Positions 14,301 to 40,041 of a stretch of DNA of 64,000 nt are shown in pieces; within the stretch, counting starts at the first letter, position 1, and every line of letters begins with the position of its first letter. The stretch is from a virus (taxonomy: Duplodnaviria; Heunggongvirae; Uroviricota; Caudoviricetes): IMG/VR virus record IMGVR_UViG_3300013285_000009, positions 12,984 through 76,983 of that record; one strand, written 5' to 3'. Under the pieces are notes generated by a model that ran no database searches, was not told where the DNA came from, and saw only the letters and a list, made by a program, of their open reading frames with translations. Position numbers and translations under genes: made by a program.

Positions 14301-16253
14301 ATGGCAATCATCCGCGATCCAATCGACCCGACTAATATTCTTAACGTCAACGCAGACGGCTCCGTCAACGTGGAGATTAGTAATTGGCCACCATCTGTAC
14401 CCGGTCCCCAGGGCTCTACCGGTGAGCAAGGTTTGACCGGTGAGCAAGGTTTGACCGGTCCCCGGGGTCTTACTGGCCCTATAGGTTTGCAAGGCGCGAC
14501 AGGCCAAACTGGCATTCAAGGTCTAGTGGGTCCGGCCGGCACAGGTGCTACTGGTCTAACAGGAGCTGCTTCTACTGTAGTTGGGCCCACTGGCCCAACT
14601 GGCCCCATCGGTTTAACGGGGGCGACTGGCCTAACTGGTGCTGCATCTACTATTGCTGGACCAACAGGTGCAACAGGTGCTGCAGGATCGTTCGGCGGCG
14701 CAGCATTTGACTATATGTATAGTAGTTCAGTTACCGGAATAGCTGACCCGGGCAGCTATAGCTTTAACAATATGAATTTAACGTTAGCGACTATGATGTA
14801 TATCAACAACATAGACGAGAACGGAGTGTTAACAACTAACTTCTTAGAGACAATTGATAGCTCAACTTCGGCGATTAAGGGCCACTTTAGTGTATCAGAT
14901 GAAGCCAACACAGTTGCATTTACGCTATTTGCCATCATCGGCTCACACACATTGAGTAACAATGTTTATGCAATCCCGATTGCATGGTTGGCGGGAGTAA
15001 CATCAATTCCTGATGCAAATCATAGTATTATAACCTTTGCTAGAACGGGAGATAAAGGAGATACCGGAGTCACTGGTGCTAAAGGGACAACCGGTAATAC
15101 AGGTGCGACTGGCGCACAAGGCAACACCGGATTAACCGGATTAACCGGTGCTGCATCTACTATCTCCGGGCCCCCGGGAGCAACGGGATCTATTGGCGCG
15201 GCCGGCCCGATCGGTAACATTGGGCCGGCCGGCCCAATGGGGCCTAGCAGCGGAGGTACTTCAGTTACCACCTTCTATGACAGCACACAGTCAAACAATA
15301 TTAAATATTCTCATAGCAGCAACAATCAACTGATCTCCGGGGCAGCTATCACTACTGACTTGGCCGGCACATACCGTACTGAATTCAATGCAGAATATTA
15401 TTGCACTCCTTCTATAGTATCTGCACAGTGTGCTACTGATTTGTCTTTGTTGGTTTCGACGCTCAACTCACTACCATCAACCGGTGTCCACGCAGCAGCA
15501 TTCGGCGCGGGCGAAACACTGGCTCCCGGTGTATACACGGTAGCAGGTGCAAGCACACAGGGCGGCAACTTAGCGTTTGACGGCCAAAACAATCCAAACT
15601 CAGTTTGGGTCATTCGAGTTAATGCAGCATTTGCTACGGCAGCAGGCGCAACGATGTCGTTGATTAACGGAGCACGAGCTGCAAACATCTTCTGGATAAT
15701 TAACGGCGCACCGACGTTCGGTGCTCAAGGTGTATTTAAAGGTACATTGATTGCCATTGCAGCAGCAATAACAACCGGTGACACTATTGACTTAGAAGGA
15801 AGATTTTTTAGCACAACTGGTGCAATTGCTACTACTAATGCTACATTAAATGTACCATTTGGTCCATCTGTAATTAATTTAGGTTCATTACAAAACTTTG
15901 TACTGTTTACTGCACTCGGTGCAGTGGGCAACACTGGTTCTATTGCTTGCCTAGGCGATATTAGTACAGGCGGTGGCGCAATTGCCGGCTACACCGGTTC
16001 TGTCGGAAGTATCTATGTACCAACTGATACCGGTACTCGTGCAACGTTTGGCATATATGTCAACGGAAGTCTAATTGCAAACTCAACACGCCTAGGACAG
16101 AGTATCCCTAACACACCGGGATTTGGCAAAGCAGCCGTACTATCCGGAATTGTACCGACTACTGCGGGACAGACAATTGAAGTTCGAATCAAGGTTGATG
16201 TTGGTGTATTTAACATCACGTCAATGAATCTTTACACCGTCAAGATTGCATAA
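14301..16253 (+). CDS. tail fibre or receptor-binding protein with collagen-like G-x-T triplet repeats
   Basis: [37 protein letters not shown].. and a second Gly-X-Y block [28 protein letters not shown]; Ala/Gly/Thr-rich C-terminal domain. Confidence 0.65.
14421..14456 (+). repeat. 18-bp perfect tandem duplication GGTGAGCAAGGTTTGACC x2 within the collagen-like region
   Basis: seen directly; encodes GEQGLT x2. Confidence 0.8.
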
Positions 16254-20536: not shown

Positions 20537-20803
20537 ATGGAACGATATGAACAAGTTATTCGCATCCAGCGTTGCATCCTGGGCGATGTAGAGCACGAAG
20601 TAACTGTTCGCAATATCAACGGTAAGTATCACTGCCGTGTGTTGGTGAACGGTGAAGTCAATCAAGAGGCAGTTTGCGCAGGCAAGCGTGACATTGGTTA
20701 CACTTGCCGCAGTCTCCTGCGTTGGGAAGATAAGTGCGGTAACTGGAGCGACTTTGCAATAGCTGCACGTAAACGTTTGAACGAACAATGGAGCACTATA
20801 TGA
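20537..20803 (+). CDS. hypothetical protein
   Basis: 88 aa. Confidence 0.4.
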   Translation: MERYEQVIRIQRCILGDVEHEVTVRNINGKYHCRVLVNGEVNQEAVCAGKRDIGYTCRSLLRWEDKCGNWSDFAIAARKRLNEQWSTI

Positions 20804-21153
20804 TGACCTTGGATACTTTGATTACTTGCCAAAGTAACAAGTGTCATTACTGCAATTGTGAAATGAATCGTGAGAAGAAGTCACTGCAATTGGCAACTGT
20901 TGAACATATTGTGGATAAGTGGTCGAGTCCAAAACACAGAAAAATAGAAGTTGCTTCCAATTTAGTTGCGGCTTGTTTTCAATGTAATAACACTCGCGGT
21001 GCAAAACGAAATCGTATTGCCCGAAGTTATTATAAAGCACAGTCAACCAAGCGCGGCATCAAACTTGCTGTTGCTTCAACGTCAAGTAAAGTTTTATATT
21101 CAATGTTTGGTTCAGTTCCACAACATCTCTTTAACGTAAAGGAAATTTTATGA
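20788..21153 (+). CDS. HNH endonuclease
   Basis: CHYCNCEM ... EHIVDKWSSPKH ... NLVAACFQCNNTRG (Cx2C ... H ... N ... Cx2C HNH core). Confidence 0.7.
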   Translation: MEHYMMTLDTLITCQSNKCHYCNCEMNREKKSLQLATVEHIVDKWSSPKHRKIEVASNLVAACFQCNNTRGAKRNRIARSYYKAQSTKRGIKLAVASTSSKVLYSMFGSVPQHLFNVKEIL

Positions 21154-21458
21154 CTCGTAAAATGGCAACGATTAGAAAAATTGATTCACTGCGTCCTATC
21201 CCGGGTGCTGATGCAATTGAATGCGCTATCGTAGGTGGATGGACCTGCGTGGTGAAGAAGGGTGAATACACAGCCGGAGACCTCGCGGTGTATTGTGAGA
21301 TTGATAGTTTTATCCCCACAGCCATCGCACCGTTCCTTACCAAGCCCGGGCACTATGCAAAGACTTTTGACGGCGTAGAAGGAGAAAGATTGAGAACTGT
21401 TTCTCTCAGAAAAACAGTCTCCCAGGGCCTGCTTCTACCACTTAAAAAGGTTGAATAA
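21150..21458 (+). CDS. hypothetical protein
   Basis: 102 aa. Confidence 0.4.
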   Translation: MTRKMATIRKIDSLRPIPGADAIECAIVGGWTCVVKKGEYTAGDLAVYCEIDSFIPTAIAPFLTKPGHYAKTFDGVEGERLRTVSLRKTVSQGLLLPLKKVE

Positions 21459-21515
21459 ACGAGTATTGGCATAAATAATAGTGACTACGCACAGTCAGAC
21501 TACGGAGACACTATT

Positions 21516-22409
21516 ATGCAAATATATCAGATACTAAACAAGATTACTGGAAAATCATATGTTGGTAAATCTAAGGATTACCAAAACAGATTTTTGAATC
21601 ACAAAAAGGCAGCACGAAATAAATGTAATCGCCGGCTATACGATTCTATGAATCATCACGGAATTGAAAATTTTGAACTAATTTTGTTAGAAGATTTGGG
21701 CAATGTAACCAGACAGGAAGCAAGTGATAAAGAAACATTTTGGGTAGCAAAGTTAAACACAATGATACCAAATGGATACAATATGACTCCTGGCGGCGAT
21801 GGTGGAAATACTATTGAATTTTGGAGCGATGCTGATAAGAAGAAGTTATGGGAACAACAAGCAAAAACTAGGACTGGAGGCAAAAGGACTGAATTGGCAA
21901 AAAAGAAAATGTCAATAGCCGCCGGTATCAGAGAAGCGAACAAGACTGTTGACGAAAAAAGAATCATAGCCGAGAAGATTAGCAATACCAACAAAGAAAA
22001 AGGTATTAGTCCGCCCGAGCATACTAAATGGAAAAAAGGTCAGGCTGGTACCAGAACTGGAATTCTGCATAACCAAGCCACTAAAGAAAAACTTAGTAAG
22101 TTTCGATCTGGTAAAACATATGAAGAAATACTCGGAGTTGAACAAGCACAACTAGAAAAGGCAAAACGAAGCGACAAATGGAAAGGTGATAAAAATCCTA
22201 GATATGTCGAATTCCCTAAAGAACAAAAACAGCAAGTAATTGGTATCTTACAAACTAAAAAAATGAAGATGTATGAAATTGTTGCTCTATTAAAGTTGAG
22301 AAAATTTAGAGAATGGTTACGAGAAATAAATGTAACCAACTATCAAGTAATGTATAATACACTAACTGATGAACAGTGGTGTTTGTTTTGGAAGAATATA
22401 AAATTATGA
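21516..22409 (+). CDS. GIY-YIG homing endonuclease (I-TevI/Seg-like)
   Basis: MQIYQILNKITGKSYVGKSKDYQNRFLNHKK.. canonical GIY-YIG; long Lys-rich C-terminal DNA-binding region. Confidence 0.8.
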   Translation: MQIYQILNKITGKSYVGKSKDYQNRFLNHKKAARNKCNRRLYDSMNHHGIENFELILLEDLGNVTRQEASDKETFWVAKLNTMIPNGYNMTPGGDGGNTIEFWSDADKKKLWEQQAKTRTGGKRTELAKKKMSIAAGIREANKTVDEKRIIAEKISNTNKEKGISPPEHTKWKKGQAGTRTGILHNQATKEKLSKFRSGKTYEEILGVEQAQLEKAKRSDKWKGDKNPRYVEFPKEQKQQVIGILQTKKMKMYEIVALLKLRKFREWLREINVTNYQVMYNTLTDEQWCLFWKNIKL

Positions 22410-22663
22410 ACGAAGATTATCCATTTGTAGTGAACATTCCCCGTCCATATCCAGGAACTGATGAGAACGAACGCATTATCAAATATATCGAACCATTGCG
22501 GGAATCAAAGTTGGTATTAGTATCAGGGGCATACGGTTTTAATCTTGGACAGTATGAAAAGGGTGAAGAATGTAGTCTGAGTCCGGGATTTAAGTATATG
22601 TTTTGGTTCAGGACAGAACAGGAACTTGACGGATTCGCCAAACATTTTGGAGTTGACAAATAA
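22406..22663 (+). CDS. hypothetical protein
   Basis: ATGA start/stop overlap with the endonuclease gene. Confidence 0.4.
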   Translation: MNEDYPFVVNIPRPYPGTDENERIIKYIEPLRESKLVLVSGAYGFNLGQYEKGEECSLSPGFKYMFWFRTEQELDGFAKHFGVDK

Positions 22664-22681
22664 TCAGTTTGGTGTTATAAT
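22653..22681 (+). promoter_or_regulatory. family promoter
   Basis: AGTTGACAAATAATCAGTTTGGTGTTATAAT. Confidence 0.55.
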
Positions 22682-22711
22682 ATACACTAGACAAACAAAC
22701 GAGAAGATACG

Positions 22712-23458
22712 ATGAAATATGTATTAGCACTAGCAGATGGCACCGAAGTTGAAGTTGTAGAAGGACAAGATGTTAGCGACCTTCTGAATATTAAACGCTG
22801 GGTTGCTGAAATCCCTGCATCGCTTGCCGGCGAAGTCAAGGGTATGTTCCCGTCAATTATCCCAAAGACTGATCAAGAGCGTATTCAAAACTTGTCAGTT
22901 GAATTAGAAGAATGGAAGTCGCAGGGACTGACTTGGGAAATTACTGAAAAGTTAGATGGCTCTTCAATGACTGTTTACGTGATGGGCGGTGAGGTCGGAG
23001 TTTGCTCACGTAATCTTGACCTCAAGCATAACGTTGATAACTCATTGTGGCGTGCCGCATACAAGTATGAACTGCCTACTAAGTTAGCTAACATTGGGCG
23101 CAACATTGCTATCCAAGGTGAACTGATTGGCAACGGCATTCAAGGTAACATGTACAAGATGCGTGACCAAGACTTTTACGTATACGACATTTACGACATT
23201 GATGCAGGACGTTACTTTACCCCTGCGGAACGTAAAGCGTTTGTAACAGAGTACAAGTTGAATCACTGCCCTGTATTTAAGTCTGATTTTATGCTTACTA
23301 ATGAGTCCGTTGCTGACTTGCTAAAACGGGCAGAAGCAAAGTCTGTAATGGGTGATATCAACGGCCCGGAGCAAGAAGGTCTTGTATATAAGTGTAACGA
23401 GCGTGAAGTGTCCTTCAAGGCAATTTCTAATAAGTTTTTGCTCAAGGTCGGCGAATAA
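22712..23458 (+). CDS. ATP-dependent RNA ligase-like nucleotidyltransferase (Rnl1-type KxDGS motif)
   Basis: EKLDGSSMTVYV motif I lysine; 248 aa. Confidence 0.5.
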   Translation: MKYVLALADGTEVEVVEGQDVSDLLNIKRWVAEIPASLAGEVKGMFPSIIPKTDQERIQNLSVELEEWKSQGLTWEITEKLDGSSMTVYVMGGEVGVCSRNLDLKHNVDNSLWRAAYKYELPTKLANIGRNIAIQGELIGNGIQGNMYKMRDQDFYVYDIYDIDAGRYFTPAERKAFVTEYKLNHCPVFKSDFMLTNESVADLLKRAEAKSVMGDINGPEQEGLVYKCNEREVSFKAISNKFLLKVGE

Positions 23459-23488
23459 GTTTTGTGTTAGTTTTTATAAAGGAAATTT

Positions 23489-23740
23489 ATGTTTAAAGAT
23501 ATTAGAGTTCAAGCGGCAATCCAAACTTTGCTTATTATTGTTTTGGGCCTTATTGCGATGTTCAGCGTAGCATACATAATCCATATTGTACCGGGCGAGA
23601 TTCTTTGGTATGTATTCTTTGTGGGTTGGGCGGTGTTTATGACCAACCTCTTGTATGGTATGGTTAGGGACAATCTAGTGATTAAAGCAGCTATCAAGGC
23701 TAGTGAGGCGCATGACGATAGCCTTCGAGCCGGGCAGTGA
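23489..23740 (+). CDS. small membrane protein
   Basis: two hydrophobic helices. Confidence 0.4.
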   Translation: MFKDIRVQAAIQTLLIIVLGLIAMFSVAYIIHIVPGEILWYVFFVGWAVFMTNLLYGMVRDNLVIKAAIKASEAHDDSLRAGQ

Positions 23741-23855
23741 AATACTACATTGCCAATAAGGCTGGTACTGTATTCCTCCCGTACGAAGAAGGAATGATTG
23801 AATGGTTGCAAGAGAACTATCCGCACAGTGAATATAAAATTATTGAGGTTGAATC

Positions 23856-24125
23856 ATGAGTGCGAAAGAATGCAAACAACTGGCACCACGCGATGTTATT
23901 ATCTTGGCACATGAGTTATCAGGAGTCATCGTTGATGTGGAGCAAGGTCCGGGGTTTGATTCAATATGCCTGGATACTATCAAACGTGTCCAGGCATCCT
24001 TGTTTGATCTGGCAGAAGAGTTGCGCATGATTCGTGCTAGTGAACATGAAGGTTGGCGCTATAGTAACGAACTAGAACAAGAGCGAGTCCGGCTCAACGC
24101 AATCATAAATTCCGAAAGCAAATAA
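23856..24125 (+). CDS. hypothetical protein
   Basis: 89 aa. Confidence 0.4.
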   Translation: MSAKECKQLAPRDVIILAHELSGVIVDVEQGPGFDSICLDTIKRVQASLFDLAEELRMIRASEHEGWRYSNELEQERVRLNAIINSESK

Positions 24126-24128
24126 AAC

Positions 24129-24157
24129 TTGACGTTAAATGGTTTTGGGTGTATAAT
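24129..24157 (+). promoter_or_regulatory. family promoter (TTGACG variant)
   Basis: CTTGACGTTAAATGGTTTTGGGTGTATAAT. Confidence 0.6.
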
Positions 24158-24186
24158 AAATTCTTTACACACCCCGGAGATAGTTA

Positions 24187-24723
24187 ATGAGCAAAGTCCT
24201 ACTTGGCATAACCTGCACTGCATTGGTTGCGGTTCTAGGGGTTCAGCAATATCAACTAACTACTATCGCCGAAGATGTGGCGGAAATCAAGCAGGCGTTT
24301 GTCACACAAACTAATGAACAAATGTCGTATACTGTTACAGATGAAAAATGTTTAGCCAAAAATATCTATTACGAAGCGGGTATTGAAAGTGATAGGGGCA
24401 AGTATGCAGTCGCCCAAGTCACTATTAATCGATTGAAGTCTGGTAAGTGGGGCGATAGTATTTGCAGTGTAGTCCATGCTAAAAGTCAATTCTCTTGGAC
24501 TCTGAAAAAGAAACTAGAAACACCGAGTGGTAATGCATGGGCTGATAGTCAATGGATTGCCCATCGAGTGTTACAAGGTGATCGGGTCGCCCAACTTGAC
24601 AAAGCAATGTTCTACCATGCTGAATACGTCAGCCCAAAGTGGCGTGATCCTGTTGCAAAAATACAACAGATTGGTCAACATATTTTCTACACTAAAGCAA
24701 AGATGAAAGTAACTGACATTTGA
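24187..24723 (+). CDS. SleB/CwlJ-like cell-wall hydrolase (Hydrolase_2) with N-terminal membrane anchor
   Basis: NIYYEAGIESDRGKYAVAQVTINRLKSGKWGDSICSVVHAKSQFSW matches the SleB catalytic-domain pattern. Confidence 0.65.
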   Translation: MSKVLLGITCTALVAVLGVQQYQLTTIAEDVAEIKQAFVTQTNEQMSYTVTDEKCLAKNIYYEAGIESDRGKYAVAQVTINRLKSGKWGDSICSVVHAKSQFSWTLKKKLETPSGNAWADSQWIAHRVLQGDRVAQLDKAMFYHAEYVSPKWRDPVAKIQQIGQHIFYTKAKMKVTDI

Positions 24724-24748
24724 CATTAAATGGCTTTGGGTGTATAAT
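24720..24748 (+). promoter_or_regulatory. family promoter
   Basis: TTTGACATTAAATGGCTTTGGGTGTATAAT; -35 overlaps the stop of the wall hydrolase gene. Confidence 0.6.
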
Positions 24749-24780
24749 ACACACATAAACTGTTAAACAAAGGCTAAAAA

Positions 24781-24945
24781 GTGAAATTCTTAGAACAAGG
24801 TAAAATCCCCGCACATACAGTATGTCCGTTTCGTATTGCTTGCCCTGCCGCACTAAACAATCAGTGCTCACACAAAGGGGTAGAGCACCCGGTACCGTTT
24901 AGCTGCGGCCTCGCCCGCGCATTTGAACTATTTGGAGCTAACTAA
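24781..24945 (+). CDS. small Cys-rich protein (54 aa, GTG start)
   Basis: RBS AAAGG 7 nt upstream; 7 Cys. Confidence 0.3.
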   Translation: MKFLEQGKIPAHTVCPFRIACPAALNNQCSHKGVEHPVPFSCGLARAFELFGAN

Positions 24946-25112
24946 TGGACGCACCCGAATTGTATTTTTTCAAAGTATTTGCTGATGAAATGTTTCCGGG
25001 GTATGAGAATGATATTACTATCTTTGCAGAAGCGAAGGCCGCATGGACTAAATCAGATATACTAGCAAGTAAAGTAGAAATTATAATCGGGTGGGAAAAT
25101 GATACGATTTGA
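24945..25112 (+). CDS. small hypothetical protein (55 aa)
   Basis: TAATG overlap; overlaps 25099 gene by 14 nt. Confidence 0.25.
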   Translation: MDAPELYFFKVFADEMFPGYENDITIFAEAKAAWTKSDILASKVEIIIGWENDTI

Positions 25113-25431
25113 ACATATTGGTTGGCAGAGAAATGTAAAATCTAATACTGACAAAGTATGGGGAATTATTCTTTTGCGAAATGACGCAATGGATTTCGGC
25201 ACCGGCAACTATGGTTACGTAGATAACACGTACCTTTCATTCTGGGGTAGACGTGGTGCCAAGCTACAGACCAAAGTATTTAAAGATAGTGCCCGGGGCG
25301 CATCCCAAATGTTCAATAAGAAAACTAGCAGCGGCTACAAAGAAGTAGATAAAGATATGCTAGACGAGGTGTATCCAGATTTTCAGCAAGACTTGGAAAA
25401 GACTGCATTCTGGGCCACATTAAAACTTTAA
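25099..25431 (+). CDS. hypothetical protein
   Basis: 110 aa. Confidence 0.4.
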   Translation: MIRFEHIGWQRNVKSNTDKVWGIILLRNDAMDFGTGNYGYVDNTYLSFWGRRGAKLQTKVFKDSARGASQMFNKKTSSGYKEVDKDMLDEVYPDFQQDLEKTAFWATLKL

Positions 25432-25462
25432 TATATGAAACAAATTCAACAAGGATATAAAA

Positions 25463-25618
25463 ATGCGTAACCTAGTCATTGCACGAATCACTGAACTTTG
25501 GACGCCGGACAGCGAGGAAGAATTAGATTTGCACTTGCGCGAACTACCCGAACTGTCCAATAAAGAATTACTGCAAGTCTTGGAAGAAATGATTGAACTG
25601 ATTGGTCTGCATGACTAA
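25463..25618 (+). CDS. small acidic protein (51 aa)
   Basis: RBS AAGGAT; ATG 25463. Confidence 0.3.
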   Translation: MRNLVIARITELWTPDSEEELDLHLRELPELSNKELLQVLEEMIELIGLHD

Positions 25619-25856
25619 AGAAGTACCCGTCCATAAAGACATCCTGGATAGACCGGTCAACGTGGATGATGTGGTTGCCTTTTCGAATCATAACTCACTT
25701 GAGATTGGTAAGATTATTAAGATGACAAACAAACAAATTCGTGTTGTTCCTGTGCTAGGACGATATCGATCAGATACCGGTTACTTGAAATACAGTGCCC
25801 AGTGTGTGTTAGTGGGTGGCCCCGAGCTTACAATGTGGATGCTGAAAAAGACTTGA
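25611..25856 (+). CDS. hypothetical protein
   Basis: in-frame ATG (MTKEVPV..) with ATGACTAA overlap. Confidence 0.35.
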   Translation: MTKEVPVHKDILDRPVNVDDVVAFSNHNSLEIGKIIKMTNKQIRVVPVLGRYRSDTGYLKYSAQCVLVGGPELTMWMLKKT

Positions 25857-25881
25857 CATTAAATCGTTTTGGGTGTATAAT
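25853..25881 (+). promoter_or_regulatory. family promoter whose -10 abuts the next gene's start codons
   Basis: CTTGACATTAAATCGTTTTGGGTGTATAAT then ATGACTATGAAA; no conserved leader. Confidence 0.55.
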
Positions 25882-25887
25882 ATGACT

Positions 25888-26289
25888 ATGAAACAAACTA
25901 AGACCCAGAACATATTCTCTGCTGAGGCACCATACGCTAATTCGTTTCAGACAAGTGCAAAGCGTTTATTGTTTGTATGTTCAGTTGGTATGTTACGCAG
26001 TCCGACAGCCCAAATGGTTGCCTCACAAAATGGACACAATGCCCGCGCATGCGGATCTGATGTTGACATTGCATTGATTCCACTCAGTTGCAACCTAATC
26101 AATTGGGCCGACAAAATCGTCTTTATGAACCCGGACAATTTTGATCAGGCGAAGCAAGTATTTGACCCGGTAGGGTACAAAGAGGATATCGAAGCCAAAG
26201 CGATTGTATGGAACATCATTGATGATTACTCTTGGGGTGACAACGTCCTGTGGAACATCCTATACACTAAAATGAAGATGTTTGACTGA
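25888..26289 (+). CDS. low-molecular-weight protein-tyrosine-phosphatase/ArsC-like protein (CX5R-S P-loop)
   Basis: LLFVCSVGMLRSPTAQ resembles the LMW-PTP motif V-C-x-G-N-x-C-R-S; start uncertain (25882 or 25888; 25873 GTG lies inside the -10). Confidence 0.4.
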   Translation: MKQTKTQNIFSAEAPYANSFQTSAKRLLFVCSVGMLRSPTAQMVASQNGHNARACGSDVDIALIPLSCNLINWADKIVFMNPDNFDQAKQVFDPVGYKEDIEAKAIVWNIIDDYSWGDNVLWNILYTKMKMFD

Positions 26290-26299
26290 TACCCAGAGG

Positions 26300-26328
26300 T
26301 TGACGTTAAATCATTTTGGGTGTATAAT
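26300..26328 (+). promoter_or_regulatory. family promoter (TTGACG variant)
   Basis: GGTTGACGTTAAATCATTTTGGGTGTATAAT plus leader AGTTTCTTAGACAGCAACAATTAGGAG. Confidence 0.6.
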
Positions 26329-26362
26329 AGTTTCTTAGACAGCAACAATTAGGAGAGCTAAA

Positions 26363-26524
26363 ATGTTTGTAGTCAAAAGATGCGTAAACGATTTTGGTGA
26401 TGTGTGGAAATGGCCAGTACTCGAATTTGCTACAGAAGCAGAAGCTAACGAGTTTGCTGCACAAGAGACCCGCAGCAACCAAAATCAGTCCGACCCTGTT
26501 TGGTTTGAAGTAGACGAGGAGTAA
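26363..26524 (+). CDS. small hypothetical protein (53 aa)
   Basis: ATG 8 nt after AGGAG. Confidence 0.35.
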   Translation: MFVVKRCVNDFGDVWKWPVLEFATEAEANEFAAQETRSNQNQSDPVWFEVDEE

Positions 26525-26527
26525 TAT

Positions 26528-26728
26528 ATGATGGTTGTAGTAGCAAAAATGACAGACGGTAGAGTGGTTGAAGTCGTCCGTGTCGCTGAAACAGTTGGCT
26601 TCTCCACTGACAAAGATTGGGTGATGATCTGTTTTGACTTTGAAAAGATCAACCGCAAGCGTGAGCAATTTAAGTGGGTTCCCGCAACGACCCGGTTCGA
26701 CTGGGTCCGAGAATTCTCTTTCGGTTGA
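26528..26728 (+). CDS. hypothetical protein
   Basis: 66 aa. Confidence 0.35.
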   Translation: MMVVVAKMTDGRVVEVVRVAETVGFSTDKDWVMICFDFEKINRKREQFKWVPATTRFDWVREFSFG

Positions 26729-26753
26729 CATTAAATGGATGGTGTGTTATACT
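26725..26753 (+). promoter_or_regulatory. family promoter (TTGACA-N17-TATACT)
   Basis: GGTTGACATTAAATGGATGGTGTGTTATACT. Confidence 0.5.
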
Positions 26754-26783
26754 GTAAGTACAGTAAAAGAAAGAGCACAGATT

Positions 26784-27227
26784 ATGAAAAAAGGTCACAT
26801 GTTAGCTACGATGTTAGTCATTGCTACTAACGCCCATGATGGTCAATACGACAAAGGTGGCGCACCTTATATTCTGCATCCCTTGAAAGTCATGCACTAT
26901 CTAAAGTCCGATGATGAGGAACTACTGTGCATGGCTCTTGGTCATGATGTTATTGAAGACACCTCAGTTACTTACAAGGATCTGCGTGATGCAGGTATCT
27001 CTGAAAGAGTTATCAACGGTATCTGGAGACTTACAAAACAACCCGGTCAAACACTTGACGAATACAAAGCAGGTGTCTTTGAAAATGTTGATGCAATGAA
27101 AGTCAAAATGGCTGATTTGCGACACAACACCGATATTCGCCGGCTGAAAGGTGTGACTGAAAAAGACATTGCTAGGATGGCCAAATATCATCTTTTTTAC
27201 ATGGAAATCAAAGCAAGATTAGGTTGA
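26784..27227 (+). CDS. small alarmone hydrolase (SAH; stand-alone RelA/SpoT HD domain)
   Basis: NAHDGQYDKGGAPYILHP..ALGHDVIEDT..MADLRHN HD-hydrolase signature; 147 aa; RBS AAAGAAAGAG. Confidence 0.7.
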   Translation: MKKGHMLATMLVIATNAHDGQYDKGGAPYILHPLKVMHYLKSDDEELLCMALGHDVIEDTSVTYKDLRDAGISERVINGIWRLTKQPGQTLDEYKAGVFENVDAMKVKMADLRHNTDIRRLKGVTEKDIARMAKYHLFYMEIKARLG

Positions 27228-27252
27228 CATTAAATGCTTTTGGTGATATAAT
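27224..27252 (+). promoter_or_regulatory. family promoter
   Basis: GGTTGACATTAAATGCTTTTGGTGATATAAT. Confidence 0.6.
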
Positions 27253-27281
27253 AGACACATAGATTAACAAATAGGAATAAA

Positions 27282-29426
27282 ATGATTCTGAATTCTGCTC
27301 CCCAAGATCAAGCTGTTCTGTCTAATGTAGGACAGATCGGTGAGTTCCGCATTCGTAATAGTGCGAAGGCATTCTCTATTCTTTCTTCGGGTCTTTACGC
27401 AAATAAAGTTCGTGCTATCATTCGTGAACTTTCGTGCAATGCGATTGACTCGCATACCGCAGCCGGTAAAAGTTCTACCCCGTTCGATGTTCACCTGCCA
27501 AATTCACTTGAAGCATGGTTCTCTATTCGTGACTATGGTACTGGACTATCGCACGATCAGGTTACTAGCATCTACACCACGTACTTTGAAAGTACCAAAA
27601 CTAATTCGAACGAATTCATCGGTGCACTGGGTCTAGGTAGCAAGTCTCCCTTCTCTTACACTGACAACTTCACGGTTACTGCTATTCAAAATGGCCGTAA
27701 GGGTGTGTACACTGCATTCATTAATGAACACGGTGTACCCTCTATCGCCCAAATGATGGAAGAAGAAACCACTGACCCAAGCGGTGTTGAAGTTAAGTTC
27801 TCGGTTAACGACCGTTACGACTTTGATAAGTTTCGGCAAGAGGCTCGGCAAGTTTACACACACTTCAAACAGCGCCCTGTAGTGTCCGGGGCACATGATT
27901 TCAAATTCATTGATACTGATTACCTTGAAAGAGATATCATCCCCGGTGTCCATACTGTCAGTGATTCGCGTAGCAGCTATGCGGTCATGGGTAATATTGC
28001 ATATCCAATTGATGTGCCTAGGGCAGACTCCACGATCAACGAAGCAATGAAGGCAATGCTGCAATGCGGCCTGGTGATTGAATTCAGTATCGGTGATCTT
28101 GACTTTCAAGCATCACGTGAAGGTCTGTCTTATGTACCGATGACTATCGCAAGCATCAAACGCAAGTTGGAAGAACTAACTGCTCAATTGTCAATTCACA
28201 TTGCGGTTGAAGCTGACAAAATTGATAACTTGTGGGAACGTGCTGTTTATCTGGCAAAGCGTAAGGGTGAAGCATTGTGGTCACAGGCTGTCGTTAAGTA
28301 CGTAACCGACACTAAGTTTCCTTTGCTGGACGCGGTAAGTCCACGCTATCGTTATGATCAACTGAAAAAGTTCAAACTGACTGTCGCGGATCTAGCATCC
28401 AAGTATAACATTGTGTTGAAGGGCTTTAGTCGTAGTCGCGGTGTGCAAGTTGCTTACAACTTGAAAAGTAATAGTGAGTATGATCAGGCTACCAACAAGC
28501 ATGTTGCGTACTGGGGTATCACTGTTAGCACGGATGCATTCTTTGTGTTCAACGATACAAAGACCGGAGCACTGGAGCGTAGTAAGTTTCACTGGAAGAA
28601 TGCTACTATGAATAGTCACAGTGAAGTGATCTATGTCATTGAAGCAGCCGATAAGAGTAAGCCGGTGCAGAAGGATTTGTTCTTGAAGGACATCATGAAT
28701 CCTCCTGAAAGTAAGATTCTGAAGGCAAGTGATTTGCGGATGCGCGAACGTGCAGCTAACATGGGCAAGAATGTAACTATTCTGCAACTTACCTCACGCT
28801 CACGTGGATACAACTCTACAATGGTTTGGGCAGACGCGGGTAAAGCTGATACGTTTGACAAGTCTACAACTTTTTACTATCTTCCTCTGAGCGGCTTCTC
28901 TTCATTGGGTAAGGTCAATGACGTAAAAGTATTGCATGAAAATCTGAATAACAGCAACCTGTTCACCGGTACTATATACGGTGTTCGTAAGGCTGATATG
29001 GATTTTATTCTGACTCAAAAGAATTGGGTCAACATTGATACAATGATTACAGGGAAATTGACTAAGTTGGGTCAGGCCGATGTGATGGGAATGGTCAAAC
29101 AGGCTATTGACTTTAAAGAGTTTTTTCAGTATAATGTGTGTAAGCTGATCAAGAAAGATAGTCCATACAAGGTGTTGCATGAGACTTTCAAGGACGTGAA
29201 AGTTACAGATCCAAAGCAGCGACACAGTTTGGAATTTTTGTGCAATGCATACAACGTAACTACTCAGGCAAATATTGACCCAAGTAAGTTGATTGCTAAG
29301 TATAAAGATGACATTAATGCACTTAAAAAACGTTACCCGTTAATTAAGGTAGTGAGTAAGTACAGCGTAGAAGATGCCGATTTGGCCGAATATATTAATT
29401 TGATTGACAACAGTAAAGGTATTTAA
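27282..29426 (+). CDS. Hsp90/HtpG-like GHKL ATPase
   Basis: N-box IRELSCNAIDS (compare HtpG LRELISNASDA), G1 IRDYGTGLS, G2 IGALGLGSKSPF; 714 aa. Confidence 0.5.
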   Translation: MILNSAPQDQAVLSNVGQIGEFRIRNSAKAFSILSSGLYANKVRAIIRELSCNAIDSHTAAGKSSTPFDVHLPNSLEAWFSIRDYGTGLSHDQVTSIYTTYFESTKTNSNEFIGALGLGSKSPFSYTDNFTVTAIQNGRKGVYTAFINEHGVPSIAQMMEEETTDPSGVEVKFSVNDRYDFDKFRQEARQVYTHFKQRPVVSGAHDFKFIDTDYLERDIIPGVHTVSDSRSSYAVMGNIAYPIDVPRADSTINEAMKAMLQCGLVIEFSIGDLDFQASREGLSYVPMTIASIKRKLEELTAQLSIHIAVEADKIDNLWERAVYLAKRKGEALWSQAVVKYVTDTKFPLLDAVSPRYRYDQLKKFKLTVADLASKYNIVLKGFSRSRGVQVAYNLKSNSEYDQATNKHVAYWGITVSTDAFFVFNDTKTGALERSKFHWKNATMNSHSEVIYVIEAADKSKPVQKDLFLKDIMNPPESKILKASDLRMRERAANMGKNVTILQLTSRSRGYNSTMVWADAGKADTFDKSTTFYYLPLSGFSSLGKVNDVKVLHENLNNSNLFTGTIYGVRKADMDFILTQKNWVNIDTMITGKLTKLGQADVMGMVKQAIDFKEFFQYNVCKLIKKDSPYKVLHETFKDVKVTDPKQRHSLEFLCNAYNVTTQANIDPSKLIAKYKDDINALKKRYPLIKVVSKYSVEDADLAEYINLIDNSKGI

Positions 29427-29427
29427 A

Positions 29428-30438
29428 ATGAGCTATCCATATTTGATTCAAGGTGCTAACATCACCGTTGTGATTGGTAACGTCCCTCACACAATCAGCA
29501 AAACCCATCTGACCTACGAACAGGTTAAAGATGCTATTAAAGCCGGCGACTGGGAAACAGTCAAAGACATTATCGAACCTAAGAAAGTTATTCTGAATTA
29601 TGGTCGTGGTAATGTAAGTGTCCAAGGCGATCAATTGTTCTGGAAGGGCAAGGAATTTCACAGTGCATTGGCAAGTCGTATGATTGCAATGTTGCAAGAA
29701 GGCTTCACTATTGAGCCCATGGTTGAATTCATGGAAAACTTGATGACTAACCCTTCGCGTCAAGCTGTCAATGAACTGTACGGCTTCTTGGAAAAGAACA
29801 ACTTGCCCATCACCCCCGATGGTTGCTTCTTGGCTTACAAGAAAGTGCGTGACAACTATTTCGACGTGCATTCTGGCACGATGGATAATAGTCTCGGCAA
29901 TGTGGTTTCTATGGAACGTAACGAAGTTGATGACAATCGCAACAACACTTGTTCGGCTGGCCTGCACTTTTGCGCACAAAACTATTTGAAGTCATTCGGT
30001 GGTGAACGTGTCGTGATTGTTAAAATCAATCCTCGCGATGTAGTCTCTATTCCAACTGACTACAATGAAGCTAAGGGTCGTGCTTGTCAGTATGAAGTGA
30101 TCGGTGAAGTTGGTTCTTCGGAAGATGACACCAATGCTGCATTCAGCAAGCCTGTTCAATCGAATGCTAGCAACAATACTTTCGTTCGTGCAAATACTGA
30201 ACCAAAGTTGGGTTCATCTGACTTCTATCGTGGTTACTCTGATGGATTCTGTGGTAGTTCGTACAATCTTCAAGTAGCCAATGCACTGCATTATCGTGAA
30301 GGTTACGAAAAGGGTGAAGATGCTTCTCGGAATGATTCGGTCGAAGTGTATCGTTTTGTTGCATCCGTGACTAAAACAGCAGGTAATGCCCCGTCTTACT
30401 GGGACGGTGGTTCTTGGCCTCTTTCAGGTAAGTTCTAA
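29428..30438 (+). CDS. hypothetical protein
   Basis: in-frame ATG 1 nt after upstream stop; ORF-track start 29404 is TTG. Confidence 0.4.
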   Translation: MSYPYLIQGANITVVIGNVPHTISKTHLTYEQVKDAIKAGDWETVKDIIEPKKVILNYGRGNVSVQGDQLFWKGKEFHSALASRMIAMLQEGFTIEPMVEFMENLMTNPSRQAVNELYGFLEKNNLPITPDGCFLAYKKVRDNYFDVHSGTMDNSLGNVVSMERNEVDDNRNNTCSAGLHFCAQNYLKSFGGERVVIVKINPRDVVSIPTDYNEAKGRACQYEVIGEVGSSEDDTNAAFSKPVQSNASNNTFVRANTEPKLGSSDFYRGYSDGFCGSSYNLQVANALHYREGYEKGEDASRNDSVEVYRFVASVTKTAGNAPSYWDGGSWPLSGKF

Positions 30439-30445
30439 ATAGTGC

Positions 30446-30474
30446 TTGACTTTAATCTTGAATGGTGATATAAT
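30446..30474 (+). promoter_or_regulatory. family promoter, divergent variant
   Basis: GCTTGACTTTAATCTTGAATGGTGATATAAT. Confidence 0.5.
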
Positions 30475-30506
30475 ATGTTATCATTTAAGATAAAGTAGAG
30501 TACAAA

Positions 30507-30986
30507 ATGGCATTTATTCAAAATTGCGCAGCAAGCGACATTCAATCGGGGCTTTTCTATAAAGATCCGGGTACTAACAGTATGCTGATTAGTATCACTG
30601 ATCCTGCAGGATGGTCTCCCGAGGCAATGCCCAACTTCAGTGAACGTCATAACTTTGAGTTCCTTGACATTGAAAAAGATGATATCGTATTCGATGAAGA
30701 ATGCCGAGTAAGTGATGCACAGGCTGCTGAACTTGTTCGATTGCTTCAATACGCCATGTCTAATGACATGAACGTTATCGTGCATTGCACTGCCGGAATC
30801 TGTCGCAGTGGTGCAGTGACTGAGATTGGTGTTCAGTTGGGCTTTGCTGATACTAAAAGATATCGTCAACCCAATTTGCTTGTCAAACATAAGATGTCGA
30901 AGTGTCTGGGTTGGACCTACGACGAAGACGAAGTGTCCGCGCCAATTAATATGAGCGCACAATTTGATTGGGAAGGTGATATCTAA
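30507..30986 (+). CDS. dual-specificity/cysteine phosphatase (HCX5R-S)
   Basis: VIVHCTAGICRSGAVT P-loop; 159 aa. Confidence 0.65.
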   Translation: MAFIQNCAASDIQSGLFYKDPGTNSMLISITDPAGWSPEAMPNFSERHNFEFLDIEKDDIVFDEECRVSDAQAAELVRLLQYAMSNDMNVIVHCTAGICRSGAVTEIGVQLGFADTKRYRQPNLLVKHKMSKCLGWTYDEDEVSAPINMSAQFDWEGDI

Positions 30987-31447
30987 TGTCTAAGTGTTAT
31001 CAATTGGTTGGAGTACCTGCTGCAGGTAAGTCTACTTGGGTTAAGGACCAATCTTGGGCCAAAGATTATGTTCATGTATCAACCGACATGTGGGTTGACA
31101 TGGAAGCCGAACGTCAGGGTAAGACCTACAACGAAGTGTTCAAAGACTATATGCCTCATGCTGTAAAGCTAATGGCTATCCAAGTTGAAAATTCCCGTGA
31201 ATTAGGATTGGACATTATCTGGGACCAAACATCTACAACGGTGAACAGTCGTAAAAAGAAGTTCCTGATGTTACCTGACTATGAGCATATTGCGGTTGTG
31301 TTTGCAACCCCTGAACTTAAAGAATTGAATCGTCGGTTGAAGTCTCGTCCTGGAAAGGACATCCCTTCATACGTGATGGTTCAAATGATCAAGGGATTTC
31401 AAATGCCTACCCTTGACGAAGGCTTTTCTACAGTGATGAAAGTATAA
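30986..31447 (+). CDS. polynucleotide 5'-kinase (T4 Pnk kinase-domain-like P-loop kinase)
   Basis: LVGVPAAGKSTW (compare T4 Pnk IGCPGSGKSTW) and ELNRRLKSRPGKDIPSYVMVQMIKGF (compare T4 [25 protein letters not shown]). Confidence 0.7.
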   Translation: MSKCYQLVGVPAAGKSTWVKDQSWAKDYVHVSTDMWVDMEAERQGKTYNEVFKDYMPHAVKLMAIQVENSRELGLDIIWDQTSTTVNSRKKKFLMLPDYEHIAVVFATPELKELNRRLKSRPGKDIPSYVMVQMIKGFQMPTLDEGFSTVMKV

Positions 31448-31529: not shown

Positions 31530-31558
31530 TTGACACTAAACAAATATTATGTTATACT
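31530..31558 (+). promoter_or_regulatory. family promoter, divergent variant (TTGACA-N17-TATACT)
   Basis: GCTTGACACTAAACAAATATTATGTTATACT. Confidence 0.45.
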
Positions 31559-31583: not shown

Positions 31584-32435
31584 ATGTTTTTGATTATGAT
31601 TGGTTTGGTTTTTGGTATCGCTATTGCAGTTGCTTGCAGTGTCGCACTCAAGCAGACATTCATTGGCATCGTAGCCGGCGCCGCATTCTTTGTTGCTGCA
31701 CTTGGGTTCTCTACCGTGACAGTAATTACTGCAGGCCATACAGGTGTGCAAGTTACATTGGGTGAAGTTAATCCTGTCCCGCTGACTGAAGGTGTTCACT
31801 TTGTGAATCCAATTAGTCATGTTACCGATGTTGATGTGCGCTTACAGAAGGCGGAGCTTAAAGCTGCCCAAGCAGGCACTAAAGACTTGCAGGTTGTGCA
31901 TACTGACATCGTAGTCAACTTCCGACTTGATCCACAAAAGGTCCCGCATATCTATAAAGAGTATGGTATCAACGTAGATGAAAAGGTTCTTGGCCCTGGT
32001 ATTAATGAAGCATTCAAATCTGTTACTGGTCATTATACTAGTGAAGAATTGGTTACTAAACGTGATCTAGTCAGCACTGAAATTTTACAGCACTTGATTG
32101 CCAAGATGGCGCCGTTCAATATCACTGTAAGCAACATCAGCTTGGTTAACTTTGGCTTCAGTCCGGCGTATCAAGCAGCAATCGAAGCAAAGGTTATTGC
32201 AACTCAACAAACTGCCAAAGCAGAACAAGACTTGGCTCGTATCAAGGTGGAAGCCGCAAGTCGTGTTGCACAGGCTAAGGGTGAGGCAGAGGCCATCAGC
32301 ATCCAAGCACAAGCTATCCAAAGTAACGGTGGACAGAATTATGTTCAACTGCAATGGATCGGCAAGTGGGATGGAAAGCTACCGACTACAGTACTCGGTG
32401 GTGATAGCAAGACATTGATGAACATCGGTAAGTAA
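31584..32435 (+). CDS. SPFH/band-7 (prohibitin/HflK-like) membrane protein
   Basis: N-terminal TM; GHTGVQVTLGEVNPVPLTEGVHFVNPISHV..QVVHTDIVVNFRLDP SPFH core; Ala/Gln-rich coiled-coil tail. Confidence 0.75.
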   Translation: MFLIMIGLVFGIAIAVACSVALKQTFIGIVAGAAFFVAALGFSTVTVITAGHTGVQVTLGEVNPVPLTEGVHFVNPISHVTDVDVRLQKAELKAAQAGTKDLQVVHTDIVVNFRLDPQKVPHIYKEYGINVDEKVLGPGINEAFKSVTGHYTSEELVTKRDLVSTEILQHLIAKMAPFNITVSNISLVNFGFSPAYQAAIEAKVIATQQTAKAEQDLARIKVEAASRVAQAKGEAEAISIQAQAIQSNGGQNYVQLQWIGKWDGKLPTTVLGGDSKTLMNIGK

Positions 32436-32443
32436 TATTACTC

Positions 32444-32482
32444 CAGAATTCGGTTGACATTAAATCCGAATTCTGCTATAAT
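32444..32482 (+). promoter_or_regulatory. family promoter with its -35 in the loop of a 10-bp hairpin (CAGAATTCGG ... CCGAATTCTG)
   Basis: seen directly: CCAGAATTCGGTTGACATTAAATCCGAATTCTGCTATAAT. Confidence 0.55.
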
Positions 32483-32614: not shown

Positions 32615-32776
32615 ATGAAGCGCACTAGAGAACAGTTGGTCGAAGAGATCATACGCTTGGAGATCGAGTGTAGCAAGATCGTGGCTCAAGCGGGTGGCAC
32701 AATATACGGCAGCGACCTGTTCCCCAAGTACTTAAAAGTCAGTCGCAAGGTTCAGAAACTACAGGCTCAATTATGA
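32615..32776 (+). CDS. small hypothetical protein (53 aa)
   Basis: RBS AAGGACACAAG; ATGA overlap with next gene. Confidence 0.35.
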   Translation: MKRTREQLVEEIIRLEIECSKIVAQAGGTIYGSDLFPKYLKVSRKVQKLQAQL

Positions 32777-33006
32777 ACGAACGAATCAAAGCACTTTGTG
32801 CTCAAGTCAAAGCTGACATTTTTAAAGACATGGACGCACCAGAGACGACCGAGTTTGGAAGTAAAAGTGCAAATGACTGGGCTGAATTGTATAATACAAG
32901 ATTCGCCGAGATGATCGTCAATGCAACCTGTAACATTATCCTACACTATGACAATGTTGATGAAGGTGTTGCAGTGGCTAAGAAACATTTTGGGATTGAA
33001 GAATGA
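32773..33006 (+). CDS. MNERIK small-protein family member a
   Basis: MNERIKALCAQ..FAEMIV..HFGIEE; paralog of 33003, 49206 and 52190. Confidence 0.5.
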   Translation: MNERIKALCAQVKADIFKDMDAPETTEFGSKSANDWAELYNTRFAEMIVNATCNIILHYDNVDEGVAVAKKHFGIEE

Positions 33007-39826: not shown

Positions 39827-40041
39827 TATCGTCTCCTCGTGATCCGGCCTTTAGTAAGATCATACGGTGAGAATTCTACTTCTACCGTATCACCTAGTAA
39901 TATTTTAATTGCATGTTGTCGCATCTTACCGGAGATGTGACCTACTATTTTTGCCCCGGATTCTAATGTAATACGGAATGTGGCATTCGATAACACATCA
40001 GTTACCTTGCCGTCCATTTTAATGCCTTCTTCTTTTGCCAT
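39826..40041 (-). CDS. infA: translation initiation factor IF-1
   Basis: [71 protein letters not shown], about 60% identical to E. coli IF1 along the full length. Confidence 0.9.

Follow-up and report, generated by a model that had tools for sequence, protein, structure and literature searches.

The DNA analysed here, which we call the window, is a stretch of 64,000 nucleotides from a Caudoviricetes virus (IMG/VR record IMGVR_UViG_3300013285_000009, positions 12,984 to 76,983). It encodes a predicted polynucleotide kinase, a cysteine phosphatase (Cys-phosphatase) that abuts it, an RNA ligase divided over two open reading frames (ORFs) and an HD-domain hydrolase, which together may be the remainder of a phage RNA-repair island. 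An earlier note, made from the letters alone, had described the region as a dispersed RNA-repair toolkit in which a Cys-phosphatase takes the place of the HAD 3'-phosphatase that is fused to the kinase in T4 Pnk; all of the ORFs and motifs it quoted are found in the window sequence. We examined the window together with about 10 kb on each side (84 kb). The window belongs to a metagenomic contig of 131,875 bp (ENA ERZ27247438 k141_226922). The phage is T4-like, with rIIA and rIIB both recognizable (phrog_612, E 1e-131; phrog_609, E 6e-82), and no near-identical genome was found among 50,697 deposited phage records, in which the only matches were of 49-58 bp. The features on which the argument turns are as follows, with lengths in amino acids (aa).

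30446-30474, plus strand: sigma-70-like promoter match before the phosphatase-kinase pair (TTGACT-17-TATAAT with TG, 11/12; consensus match only)
30507-30986, plus strand: cysteine phosphatase, 159 aa, of divergent dual-specificity phosphatase (DSP) fold with the motif HCTAGICRSGA; predicted RNA 2'/3'-phosphomonoesterase (family, fold, gene context)
30986-31447, plus strand: stand-alone P-loop kinase of the polynucleotide kinase family, 153 aa; predicted 5'-OH RNA kinase (AAA_33; PDB profile; NCBIfam)
21150-21458, plus strand: N-terminal piece of an Rnl5-type ligase, 102 aa, covering the larger part of the OB-like N domain that defines the clade (source annotation PF21189; TIGR02306; NgrRnl alignment)
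21516-22409, plus strand: GIY-YIG homing endonuclease gene, 297 aa, inserted in the ligase gene (Pfam GIY-YIG E 1.7e-8; phrog_314 E 3.3e-27)
22406-22663, plus strand: small ORF coupled to the endonuclease gene by overlapping stop and start codons (ATGA); 85 aa when read from its ATG at 22406; a gene call in the source annotation
22653-22681, plus strand: perfect sigma-70-like promoter match (TTGACA-17-TATAAT with TG, 12/12; consensus match only)
22712-23458, plus strand: C-terminal piece of the Rnl5 ligase, 248 aa, with the end of the N domain and the whole nucleotidyltransferase domain (PF09414; TIGR02306; NgrRnl alignment)
26739-27227, plus strand: HD_4 hydrolase resembling small alarmone hydrolases, encoded as a stand-alone protein (best solved relative the (p)ppApp hydrolase 7smg, E 8.5e-24)

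The cysteine phosphatase carries VHCTAGICRSGA and belongs to a very divergent DSP-fold family that is found almost only in phages. The earlier description of a DSP-type HCX5R enzyme holds for motif and fold, with a Pfam DSPc match that remains under threshold (E 1.1e-5; 25.7 bits against a 33.5-bit cut-off), and the corresponding PHROG, phrog_5614, is annotated 'unknown function'. Across 51 members, which are 32-55% identical to the window protein, D54, C94, G97, R100 and S101 are invariant. D54 lies three residues past the strand formed by residues 46-51; HMMER aligns the general acid of the MKPs with D59 instead. A search of 1.84 billion representatives (E up to 1e-3) showed the family to be compact, with at least 457 representatives (clusters at 50% identity) that are nearly all stand-alone proteins of 130-160 aa. 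Its metagenomic homologues form 1,417 clusters at 90% identity, many of them on contigs of 100-360 kb. Among the deposited phage records there is a single cultured-phage homologue (1/50,697), in Synechococcus phage BUCT-ZZ01. A scan of 185,579 species genomes returned 7 loci, all of them in metagenome-assembled genomes and several with phage-type neighbours, and we found no bacterial operon that could serve as an independent cellular context.

The fold is that of the DSPs and protein tyrosine phosphatases (PTPs), and the top fold matches are protein DSPs (STYX, DUSP28, DUSP15, VH1 and OH1). RNA 5'-phosphatases of the same superfamily also occur among the matches (1yn9, 4mbb/4jmj and 2c46). It is conceivable that the phage enzyme is an RNA 5'-tri- or diphosphatase like baculovirus BVP or PIR1/DUSP11, making the 5'-monophosphates that ligases require. 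These enzymes and the triphosphatase of the metazoan capping enzyme share the superfamily and its Cys-Arg P-loop chemistry with the window protein, and they are precedents for a PTP fold at work on RNA ends. They act, however, on 5'-tri- and diphosphates, whereas the window family keeps an invariant Asp suited to monoesters. The RNA triphosphatase clade is not known to have the general-acid Asp and has the loop HCTHGxNRTG, unlike the invariant D54 and AGxCRSGA of the family described here, which appears to fall outside the RNA 5'-triphosphatase clade of BVP, PIR1 and Mce1. Moreover, the RNA 5'-phosphatases rank under the protein DSPs in the fold search, and the adjoining kinase would already provide 5'-phosphates. 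We regard a 5'-polyphosphatase as very improbable. As a clue to function, structural closeness to RNA phosphatases was not found in any case, BVP-, PIR1- and Mce1-type structures being no closer than protein DSPs.

The kinase gene follows directly, its start overlapping the phosphatase stop by 1 nucleotide (TAATG) and not by 4, as had been noted earlier. Its product, which carries GVPAAGKSTW and RRLKSRPGKDIPSYVMVQMIKGF, is assigned by its sequence to the Pnk family. It matches Pfam AAA_33 (E 1.5e-15) and the Pnk PHROG (5e-8), and its best NCBIfam models are PNK-3'Pase and bacterial Pnkp. Searched against PDB as a single sequence, it gives only weak matches, to the kinase domain of mammalian PNKP. 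When a profile was built from 40 homologues and compared with 177,635 PDB sequences, it retrieved solely the kinase of Clostridium thermocellum Pnkp (CthPnkp; 4gp7, E 3.8e-6; 4xrp, 2e-5), PSTK, Capnocytophaga Pnkp1, mammalian PNKP and T4 Pnk (1e-3). PSTK is the L-seryl-tRNA(Sec) kinase, and all of these solved relatives act on RNA, DNA or tRNA-linked substrates. The identification of a T4 Pnk-like kinase in the earlier note stands, and a polynucleotide substrate is predicted. In the P-loop, GVPAAGKS, residues G9, G14, K15 and T17 are invariant among close homologues; the catalytic Asp after strand 2 is the invariant D34 (S-T-D), aligned with D38 of CthPnk (D35 of T4); and the DxT motif (D80/T82), R89 and the lid arginines R117 and R121 are likewise invariant and align with CthPnk. 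No HAD 3'-phosphatase is fused to the kinase, whose 153 aa form a single AAA_33 domain, and within the 84 kb no HAD-family match turned up in any gene that was scanned or annotated at source, not every ORF there having been scanned. The phosphatase and kinase genes are predicted to form a two-gene unit behind a shared promoter-like site (30446-31447).

The strongest indication of what the Cys-phosphatase does comes from the company it keeps. We fetched 80 IMG/VR loci anchored on the Cys-phosphatase and 80 anchored on the kinase (160 in total), and subjected all same-strand ORFs within 5 kb of the anchor in these related loci to unbiased clustering. The resulting neighbour families were the following.

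Cys-phosphatase (query family): 150 loci
Metallophosphoesterase of 196 aa: 119 loci (phrog_547; Aquifex aq_1665 homologue, E 9e-12)
Kinase (query family): 117 loci
Protein of 75 aa, function not assigned: 93 loci
Ligase of about 300 aa, T4 Rnl1 family: 54 loci (PF09511 E 4.9e-12; phrog_562)
DUF2828/DUF7788 TROVE-like protein: 43 loci (phrog_850, 'RNA-binding protein')
HD_4 protein, alarmone-hydrolase-type HD: 33 loci
Rnl5 ligase, DraRnl/NgrRnl type: 13 loci
RF-1-domain protein: 13 loci (PF00472)

In more than 100 related viral contigs the Cys-phosphatase lies amid RNA ligases and other RNA-repair genes. A Cys-phosphatase gene stands on the same strand within 3.2 kb of the kinase, upstream or downstream, in 66/80 kinase-anchored loci, and the kinase is present within the available flank in 35/80 phosphatase-anchored ones. 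The two genes abut or overlap in both orders, phosphatase-kinase in the window and kinase-phosphatase in another contig (L002), and the cluster genes as a whole were found in 78 different orders. When only loci flanked by 4 kb or more on each side are counted, the phosphatase (31 loci) is accompanied by the esterase in 77%, the kinase in 45% and Rnl1 in 26%; the kinase (25 loci) is accompanied by the esterase in 76%, the phosphatase in 84% and Rnl1 in 48%. The HD protein is linked in 4-32% of such loci, far more weakly than the esterase, kinase or Rnl1. One contig (L181, 7091-13175) carries an unbroken run of the 75-aa gene, Rnl5, phosphatase, kinase, esterase, Rnl1 and TROVE-like gene, and Synechococcus phage BUCT-ZZ01 has Rnl5, Cys-phosphatase, metallophosphoesterase and kinase within 12 kb. 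Hen1 does not occur among the annotated neighbour families of the related loci.

A cluster of RNA-end enzymes with stable membership and shuffled order is the usual signature of a functional module, and on this ground we place the Cys-phosphatase in RNA end healing. The RNA-repair setting proposed for this gene is supported in that the family sits inside an RNA-repair gene cluster in related contigs, and from this context the enzyme is probably an RNA 2'/3'-phosphatase. The notion that it stands in place of the HAD phosphatase is too simple. It would fit the window phage, in which the Cys-phosphatase abuts the kinase without an esterase in the cluster, an arrangement shared with only a few others; but the small metallophosphoesterase accompanies most Cys-phosphatases, so in those loci the Cys-phosphatase would be an added component and not a plain replacement.

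The 75-aa protein (cluster C3) has a basic tail and almost always flanks the Cys-phosphatase in relatives, and the DUF2828/DUF7788 protein (cluster C7), which contains a vWA domain, lies at the cluster edge; neither has a homologue in the window. On the minus strand of the window, at about 39826-40041, lies a gene for a 71-aa IF1/eIF-1a-like protein (PF01176), and in 20 related loci a member of a related small family (C17) is encoded no more than 5 kb from the phosphatase or kinase.

The same neighbourhood bears on two other substrates that the fold would allow. The enzyme could be a protein phosphatase, removing phosphate from serine, threonine or tyrosine and so undoing what host kinase-type toxins or defence signalling do to translation factors or other proteins. 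The adjacency of its gene to the kinase would then reflect a shared translation-rescue theme or early-gene synteny, and not RNA-end chemistry. The protein DSPs at the top of the fold search speak for this, as do the invariant Asp in the loop where DSPs hold their general acid, the acidity of the protein, the existence of distant members without RNA-repair neighbours, and a second phosphatase of the phage, unlinked and of low-molecular-weight PTP (LMW-PTP) fold, which suggests that protein dephosphorylation may matter to it. Nevertheless, the steadiest neighbours, in many shuffled orders, are the metallophosphoesterase, the Pnk-family kinase, Rnl1 and Rnl5, and no protein kinase or signalling gene is among the annotated neighbour families. 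We therefore consider a protein substrate unlikely. Alternatively, the enzyme might act alongside the HD protein on a nucleotide or small molecule, such as 3'-phosphorylated nucleotides, breakdown products of alarmones, a signalling nucleotide of a defence system or ADP-ribose phosphates. The cluster repeatedly includes HD_4 proteins, the alarmone-hydrolase-like HD gene lies directly upstream of the pair in some relatives (L005-L007), the window contains NAD-salvage genes, and the fold matches include Cys-phosphatases with non-protein substrates (PTPMT1, PTP-like inositol phosphatases, PTEN-type lipid phosphatases and laforin). The HD linkage (13-32%) is, however, much weaker than that of the metallophosphoesterase, kinase and Rnl1, and alarmone hydrolases can act on tRNA 3' ends (10.1101/2021.04.30.441581), so that even this link is compatible with an RNA substrate. 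A small-molecule substrate seems to us rather improbable.

The ligase that would complete the pathway is encoded 7.5 kb upstream of the pair. The earlier note was right that 22712-23458 encodes an RNA ligase with the KLDGSS motif (Pfam RNA_ligase PF09414, E 3.5e-33, 115.6 bits), but its likeness to T4 Rnl1 did not hold (PF09511, 18.8 bits, under the 28.3 cut-off), and the ORF, although present as described, comprises only the C-terminal two thirds of the protein. PHROG 968 covers this 248-aa ORF from profile position 121 onward only, which led us to inspect the upstream sequence and to find the missing N-terminal 102 aa at 21150-21458. When the two translations are joined, they align end to end with Naegleria gruberi NgrRnl (5cot; residues 4-336 of 340, E 6.6e-80), the N piece covering residues 4-103, and the joined sequence matches single intact genes in 339 phage records. 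Ligase motifs I (KLDGSS), III, IIIa, IV and V are all retained; KLDGSS, QGE, YDIYDI, EGLVYK and FKAISN align with NgrRnl. The joined ORFs have the Rnl5 architecture of an N-terminal OB-like domain followed by the nucleotidyltransferase domain, without a C-terminal appendage. TIGR02306 (RNA_lig_DRB0094, the NCBIfam model for DraRnl) matches the N piece at positions 2-96 (93 bits) and the C piece at 103-341 (101.8 bits); each score is below the cut-off of 151.15 bits, which neither passes as a single polypeptide, and their sum of 194.8 is above it. We accordingly assign the predicted ligase to Rnl5, the nick-sealing class of DraRnl and NgrRnl, as a two-piece gene. Phage homologues of the Rnl5 family were already known (PMC4408790); the two-piece Rnl5 is previously unreported. 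One report (PMC5397189) describes Rnl5 enzymes as sealing 3'-OH/5'-PO4 nicks in duplexes and their physiological role as uncharted. The earlier suggestion that the phage faces host anticodon nucleases fits an Rnl5 ligase less well than it would an Rnl1 ligase.

Between the ligase pieces lie 1.25 kb that are almost fully coding, taken up by the GIY-YIG endonuclease gene and the small ORF, for which no family match was found. A group I intron was considered and discarded, because Rfam returned nothing at gathering thresholds for the window and nothing at E up to 1 for 20800-23600. The absence of any Rfam intron or ribozyme, together with the nearly all-coding interval and its ATGA-coupled ORF, argues for a gene left in pieces by insertion of a free-standing endonuclease. 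The break is equivalent to NgrRnl residue 103 and lies in a loop of the N domain that is 9 to 25 residues long among intact homologues; the ligase is encoded as two polypeptides because the endonuclease gene sits in this variable loop. Among 17 related Rnl5 loci retrieved from IMG/VR, 15 are intact, one is a fragment at a contig end and one (L176) is split in the identical way and carries there an endonuclease 87% identical to that of the window. In the small-ORF position that contig has a different 85-aa ORF (L176 2264-2521), with which 22406-22663 shares only the first and last residues. The L176 ORF belongs to a recurrent family of about 80 aa (cluster C5), starting MNERIK or MNKKIY and ending HFG(V/I)(E/D)(E/K), that is also represented in the window at 32773-33006.

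It is possible that the toolkit is partly dead, the endonuclease having inactivated Rnl5 and left two decaying remnants. Removal of the N domain from NgrRnl cripples adenylylation and nick sealing and spares step 3 (PMC4408790), so a defect is to be expected of the C piece alone, and activity would require assembly of the two pieces; the cut lies within this required domain, and all but two of the related genes are intact, with only one sharing the split. Against decay, both pieces are complete ORFs that keep every catalytic motif, the cut falls in a loop whose length differs among intact homologues, and the C piece has its own perfect promoter match, which sits 30 nucleotides upstream of it. 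Moreover, the split persists in the diverged contig L176 (78-93% protein identity). At a dS of about 0.74 between window and L176, the ratio of nonsynonymous to synonymous substitution (dN/dS) comes to 0.10 in the N piece and 0.19 in the C piece, from which both halves appear to be under purifying selection. We think a dead ligase doubtful.

Compared with its relatives, the window phage has what appears to be a reduced island. It retains the split Rnl5, HD protein, Cys-phosphatase and kinase, and homologues of the 196-aa esterase, Rnl1, the TROVE-like protein, the RF-1-domain protein and the 75-aa protein are absent across the 84 kb. L005-L007, the closest relatives, keep the HD gene directly upstream of the phosphatase-kinase pair and contiguous with it, and in the window rIIA and rIIB (27282-30438) stand between HD and the pair; the rII genes therefore look inserted or relocated here. 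The HD protein is a possible associate of the repair module. Some alarmone hydrolases strip the pyrophosphate that toxSAS toxins place on tRNA 3' ends (10.1101/2021.04.30.441581), so that the gene would fit a tRNA-rescue theme despite its weak linkage. A second HD_4 protein of RelA/SpoT hydrolase type is encoded at 3364-4641, fused to an N-terminal HIGH-type cytidylyltransferase-like domain.

Promoter-like sites, scored out of 12 as matches to the sigma-70 consensus TTGACA-17-TATAAT and to be read as consensus matches only, number 44, compared with 27.7 +/- 5.7 in shuffles. Perfect matches at 22653-22681, 24720-24748, 25853-25881, 27224-27252 and 32454-32482 each lie directly upstream of a plus-strand gene, and there is a further promoter-like match at 31530-31558, alongside several 11-of-12 sites. 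The region looks like a dense array of candidate early-type promoters, with many small genes having their own start. The SPFH/Band-7 gene at 31584-32435, just beyond the kinase, was considered as a conserved partner and set aside; it has its own promoter match, and no homologue lies near the pair in the 160 loci (E 1e-5).

Taken together, we favour the reading that the region is a reduced phage RNA-repair island in which the Cys-phosphatase and kinase form a split end-healing enzyme and Rnl5 performs the sealing, and we would give it a probability of roughly 0.5. The kinase would phosphorylate 5'-OH RNA ends. The Cys-phosphatase would form a phosphocysteine intermediate as it hydrolyses a 2'- or 3'-phosphomonoester: C94 would be the nucleophile, R100 would bind the phosphate, and the invariant D54 is the likely general acid that protonates the ribose oxygen. 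The healed 3'-OH/5'-PO4 ends would then be sealed by Rnl5, presumably assembled from its halves, or by Rnl1 in relatives. In loci that also have the metalloesterase, this enzyme probably opens the 2',3'-cyclic phosphate first and leaves the resulting monoester to the Cys-phosphatase. More tentatively, the enzyme could be the first polynucleotide 2'/3'-phosphatase to work via phosphocysteine, downstream of a cyclic-phosphodiesterase-type metalloenzyme in the full islands and alone with the kinase here.

A number of points weigh against this reading. The context argument comes from related phages (proteins at least 50% identical), and co-occurrence is inflated by their shared ancestry; two distant family members (35-39% identity) have no kinase, ligase or esterase within about 5 kb. 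No fusion of the phosphatase to a kinase, ligase or other domain was found among the 457 representatives; the Pfam scan covered the 10 longest of the top 150. Members of the family are acidic (median isoelectric point about 5.2); as a clue to RNA binding we found the isoelectric point uninformative. In the kinase, position 37 is an invariant Val where R38 of T4 and R41 of CthPnkp contact the acceptor; mammalian PNKP is likewise without Arg at this position in the alignment. The metallophosphoesterase of CthPnkp performs both hydrolytic steps (PMC3675462), so a second esterase is not obviously required. The ligase may be inactive as two pieces. Finally, the dS between the window and L176 is 0.44 for the endonuclease and about 0.74 for the ligase pieces. 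The lower value suggests a possible later spread of the endonuclease, after the divergence of the two ligase lineages, and the argument from selection is weaker for it.

The proposed island is best seen as a known pathway with a non-orthologous, almost phage-confined phosphatase family. As in T4, whose Pnkp and Rnl1 are the familiar example of tRNA healing and sealing by a phage, a Pnk-family kinase is combined with a phosphomonoesterase and an ATP-dependent RNA ligase in a T4-like phage, and the kinase shares with T4 Pnkp the P-loop, catalytic Asp, DxT motif and lid arginines. T4 Pnkp, however, fuses kinase and HAD domains, whereas here they are separate and the phosphatase is a DSP-fold Cys enzyme, not a DxDxT acylphosphatase. 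The T4 ligase is Rnl1 and that of the window Rnl5; in relatives the kinase does have a ligase of the Rnl1 family as its neighbour. The bacterial systems, Clostridium thermocellum Pnkp and Pnkp1-Rnl-Hen1, provide the closest solved kinase relatives, and like them the related phages pair the kinase with a calcineurin-type metallophosphoesterase and a ligase. They differ in that the phage components are separate small proteins, with an aq_1665-like 196-aa esterase and an extra Cys-phosphatase, and in that the window phage is without the esterase across the 84 kb. The ligase agrees with DraRnl and NgrRnl in its motifs, its N-terminal OB-like domain and its lack of a C-terminal domain, and differs in being encoded in two pieces. 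Genes in pieces are familiar from T4-like phages, as in the NrdA of Aeromonas phage Aeh1, split by a free-standing homing endonuclease. The arrangement here is the same in having a GIY-YIG gene within the coding sequence, two ORFs each with its own start and stop, and no ribozyme detected; it differs in that the interrupted gene encodes an RNA ligase.

A connection between this phosphatase fold and RNA repair may not be entirely new. The family has weak matches, below the 27-bit cut-offs, to the Pfam entries PF22784 ('Swiss Army Knife protein, DSP-PTPase phosphatase domain', E 0.0034) and PF22785 ('Tc-R-P', E 3.2e-5), and differs from them in consisting of stand-alone proteins of about 135-160 aa. 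A jumbo-phage review treats the Swiss-army-knife family as RNA-repair phosphatases, and its survey of phage RNA repair names HAD, 'Swiss-army-knife' HAD, calcineurin-like, HD, 2H and cRec phosphoesterases, with no Cys-phosphatase among them (PMC7824862). The Pfam title and the review's label together suggest that a DSP-type domain in an RNA-repair protein may already have been predicted.

Two further phosphatases of the window had been named as possible contributors to end healing.

25888-26289, plus strand: LMW-PTP-fold protein, 133 aa, with a CX5R-S motif; the start at 25888 agrees with 133-aa homologues, and the gene has its own perfect promoter match (25853-25881)
46757-47596, minus strand: Metallophos protein, 279 aa (phrog_1649), among nucleotide-metabolism genes (MazG-like, ferredoxin, dCMP deaminase)

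The guess that the first is LMW-PTP-like was correct as to fold. The ORF (25873-26289) has no Pfam, PHROG or NCBIfam match and its profile reaches PDB entries only at E 0.04-0.1, but the structural model (pLDDT 90.7) has YwlE and Wzb as top Foldseek matches (TM 0.57-0.63, E 7e-6). Among the 147 homologues (clusters) of this small phage family, several named 'predicted protein tyrosine phosphatase' by JGI, C31, R37, S38 and D112 are invariant, and the CX5R(S/T) motif is at the start of helix 1. We rejected it as a second healing phosphatase, since in none of the 160 loci does the gene lie close to the phosphatase or kinase, and nothing ties the protein to RNA repair. The 279-aa metallophosphoesterase is unrelated to the cluster's 196-aa esterase, lies on the opposite strand in a different gene cluster, and lacks comparable linkage; in 11 related loci a homologue is encoded at up to 10 kb from the phosphatase or Rnl5, never adjacent.

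The remainder of the window and its flanks contains other genes of interest. An NMNAT-Nudix fusion (about 53207-54226, minus strand) and NAMPT (55784-57220, minus strand) form a gene pair for NAD+ salvage such as KVP40-like phages are known to have. Chaperone and protease genes are plentiful, with a ClpB-like gene at 67-2073 and DnaJ, Cpn10, HSP20, ClpS, ClpP and PhoH in the 10-kb flanks (L190/L191). A 650-aa protein with long collagen-like Gly-X-Y repeats (14301-16253; local GC content 0.47 versus about 0.41) is probably a fibre protein. At around residues 65-80 the 412-aa protein encoded at 5673-6911 shows a nucleotidyltransferase-like motif, GS...D.D; it matches no family in Pfam or NCBIfam and might be an RNA-end nucleotidyltransferase.

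RNA healing and sealing is a main answer of phages to host nucleases that cut tRNA and rRNA, and the known chemistries of 3'-end healing are those of the HAD, binuclear-metal and HD enzymes. If our reading is true, the Cys-phosphatase would be a fourth and a new enzyme class for the pathway. Hundreds of phage genes that currently carry the label 'hypothetical' or 'predicted protein tyrosine phosphatase' would then gain a function, and the family might yield a metal-independent 3'-phosphatase reagent. The two-piece Rnl5 offers a natural test of whether the clade-defining N domain works in trans. Moreover, the cluster to which these genes belong, with its TROVE-like and RF-1-domain proteins, its alarmone hydrolase and its two types of ligase, provides a compact set of testable counter-defence genes.

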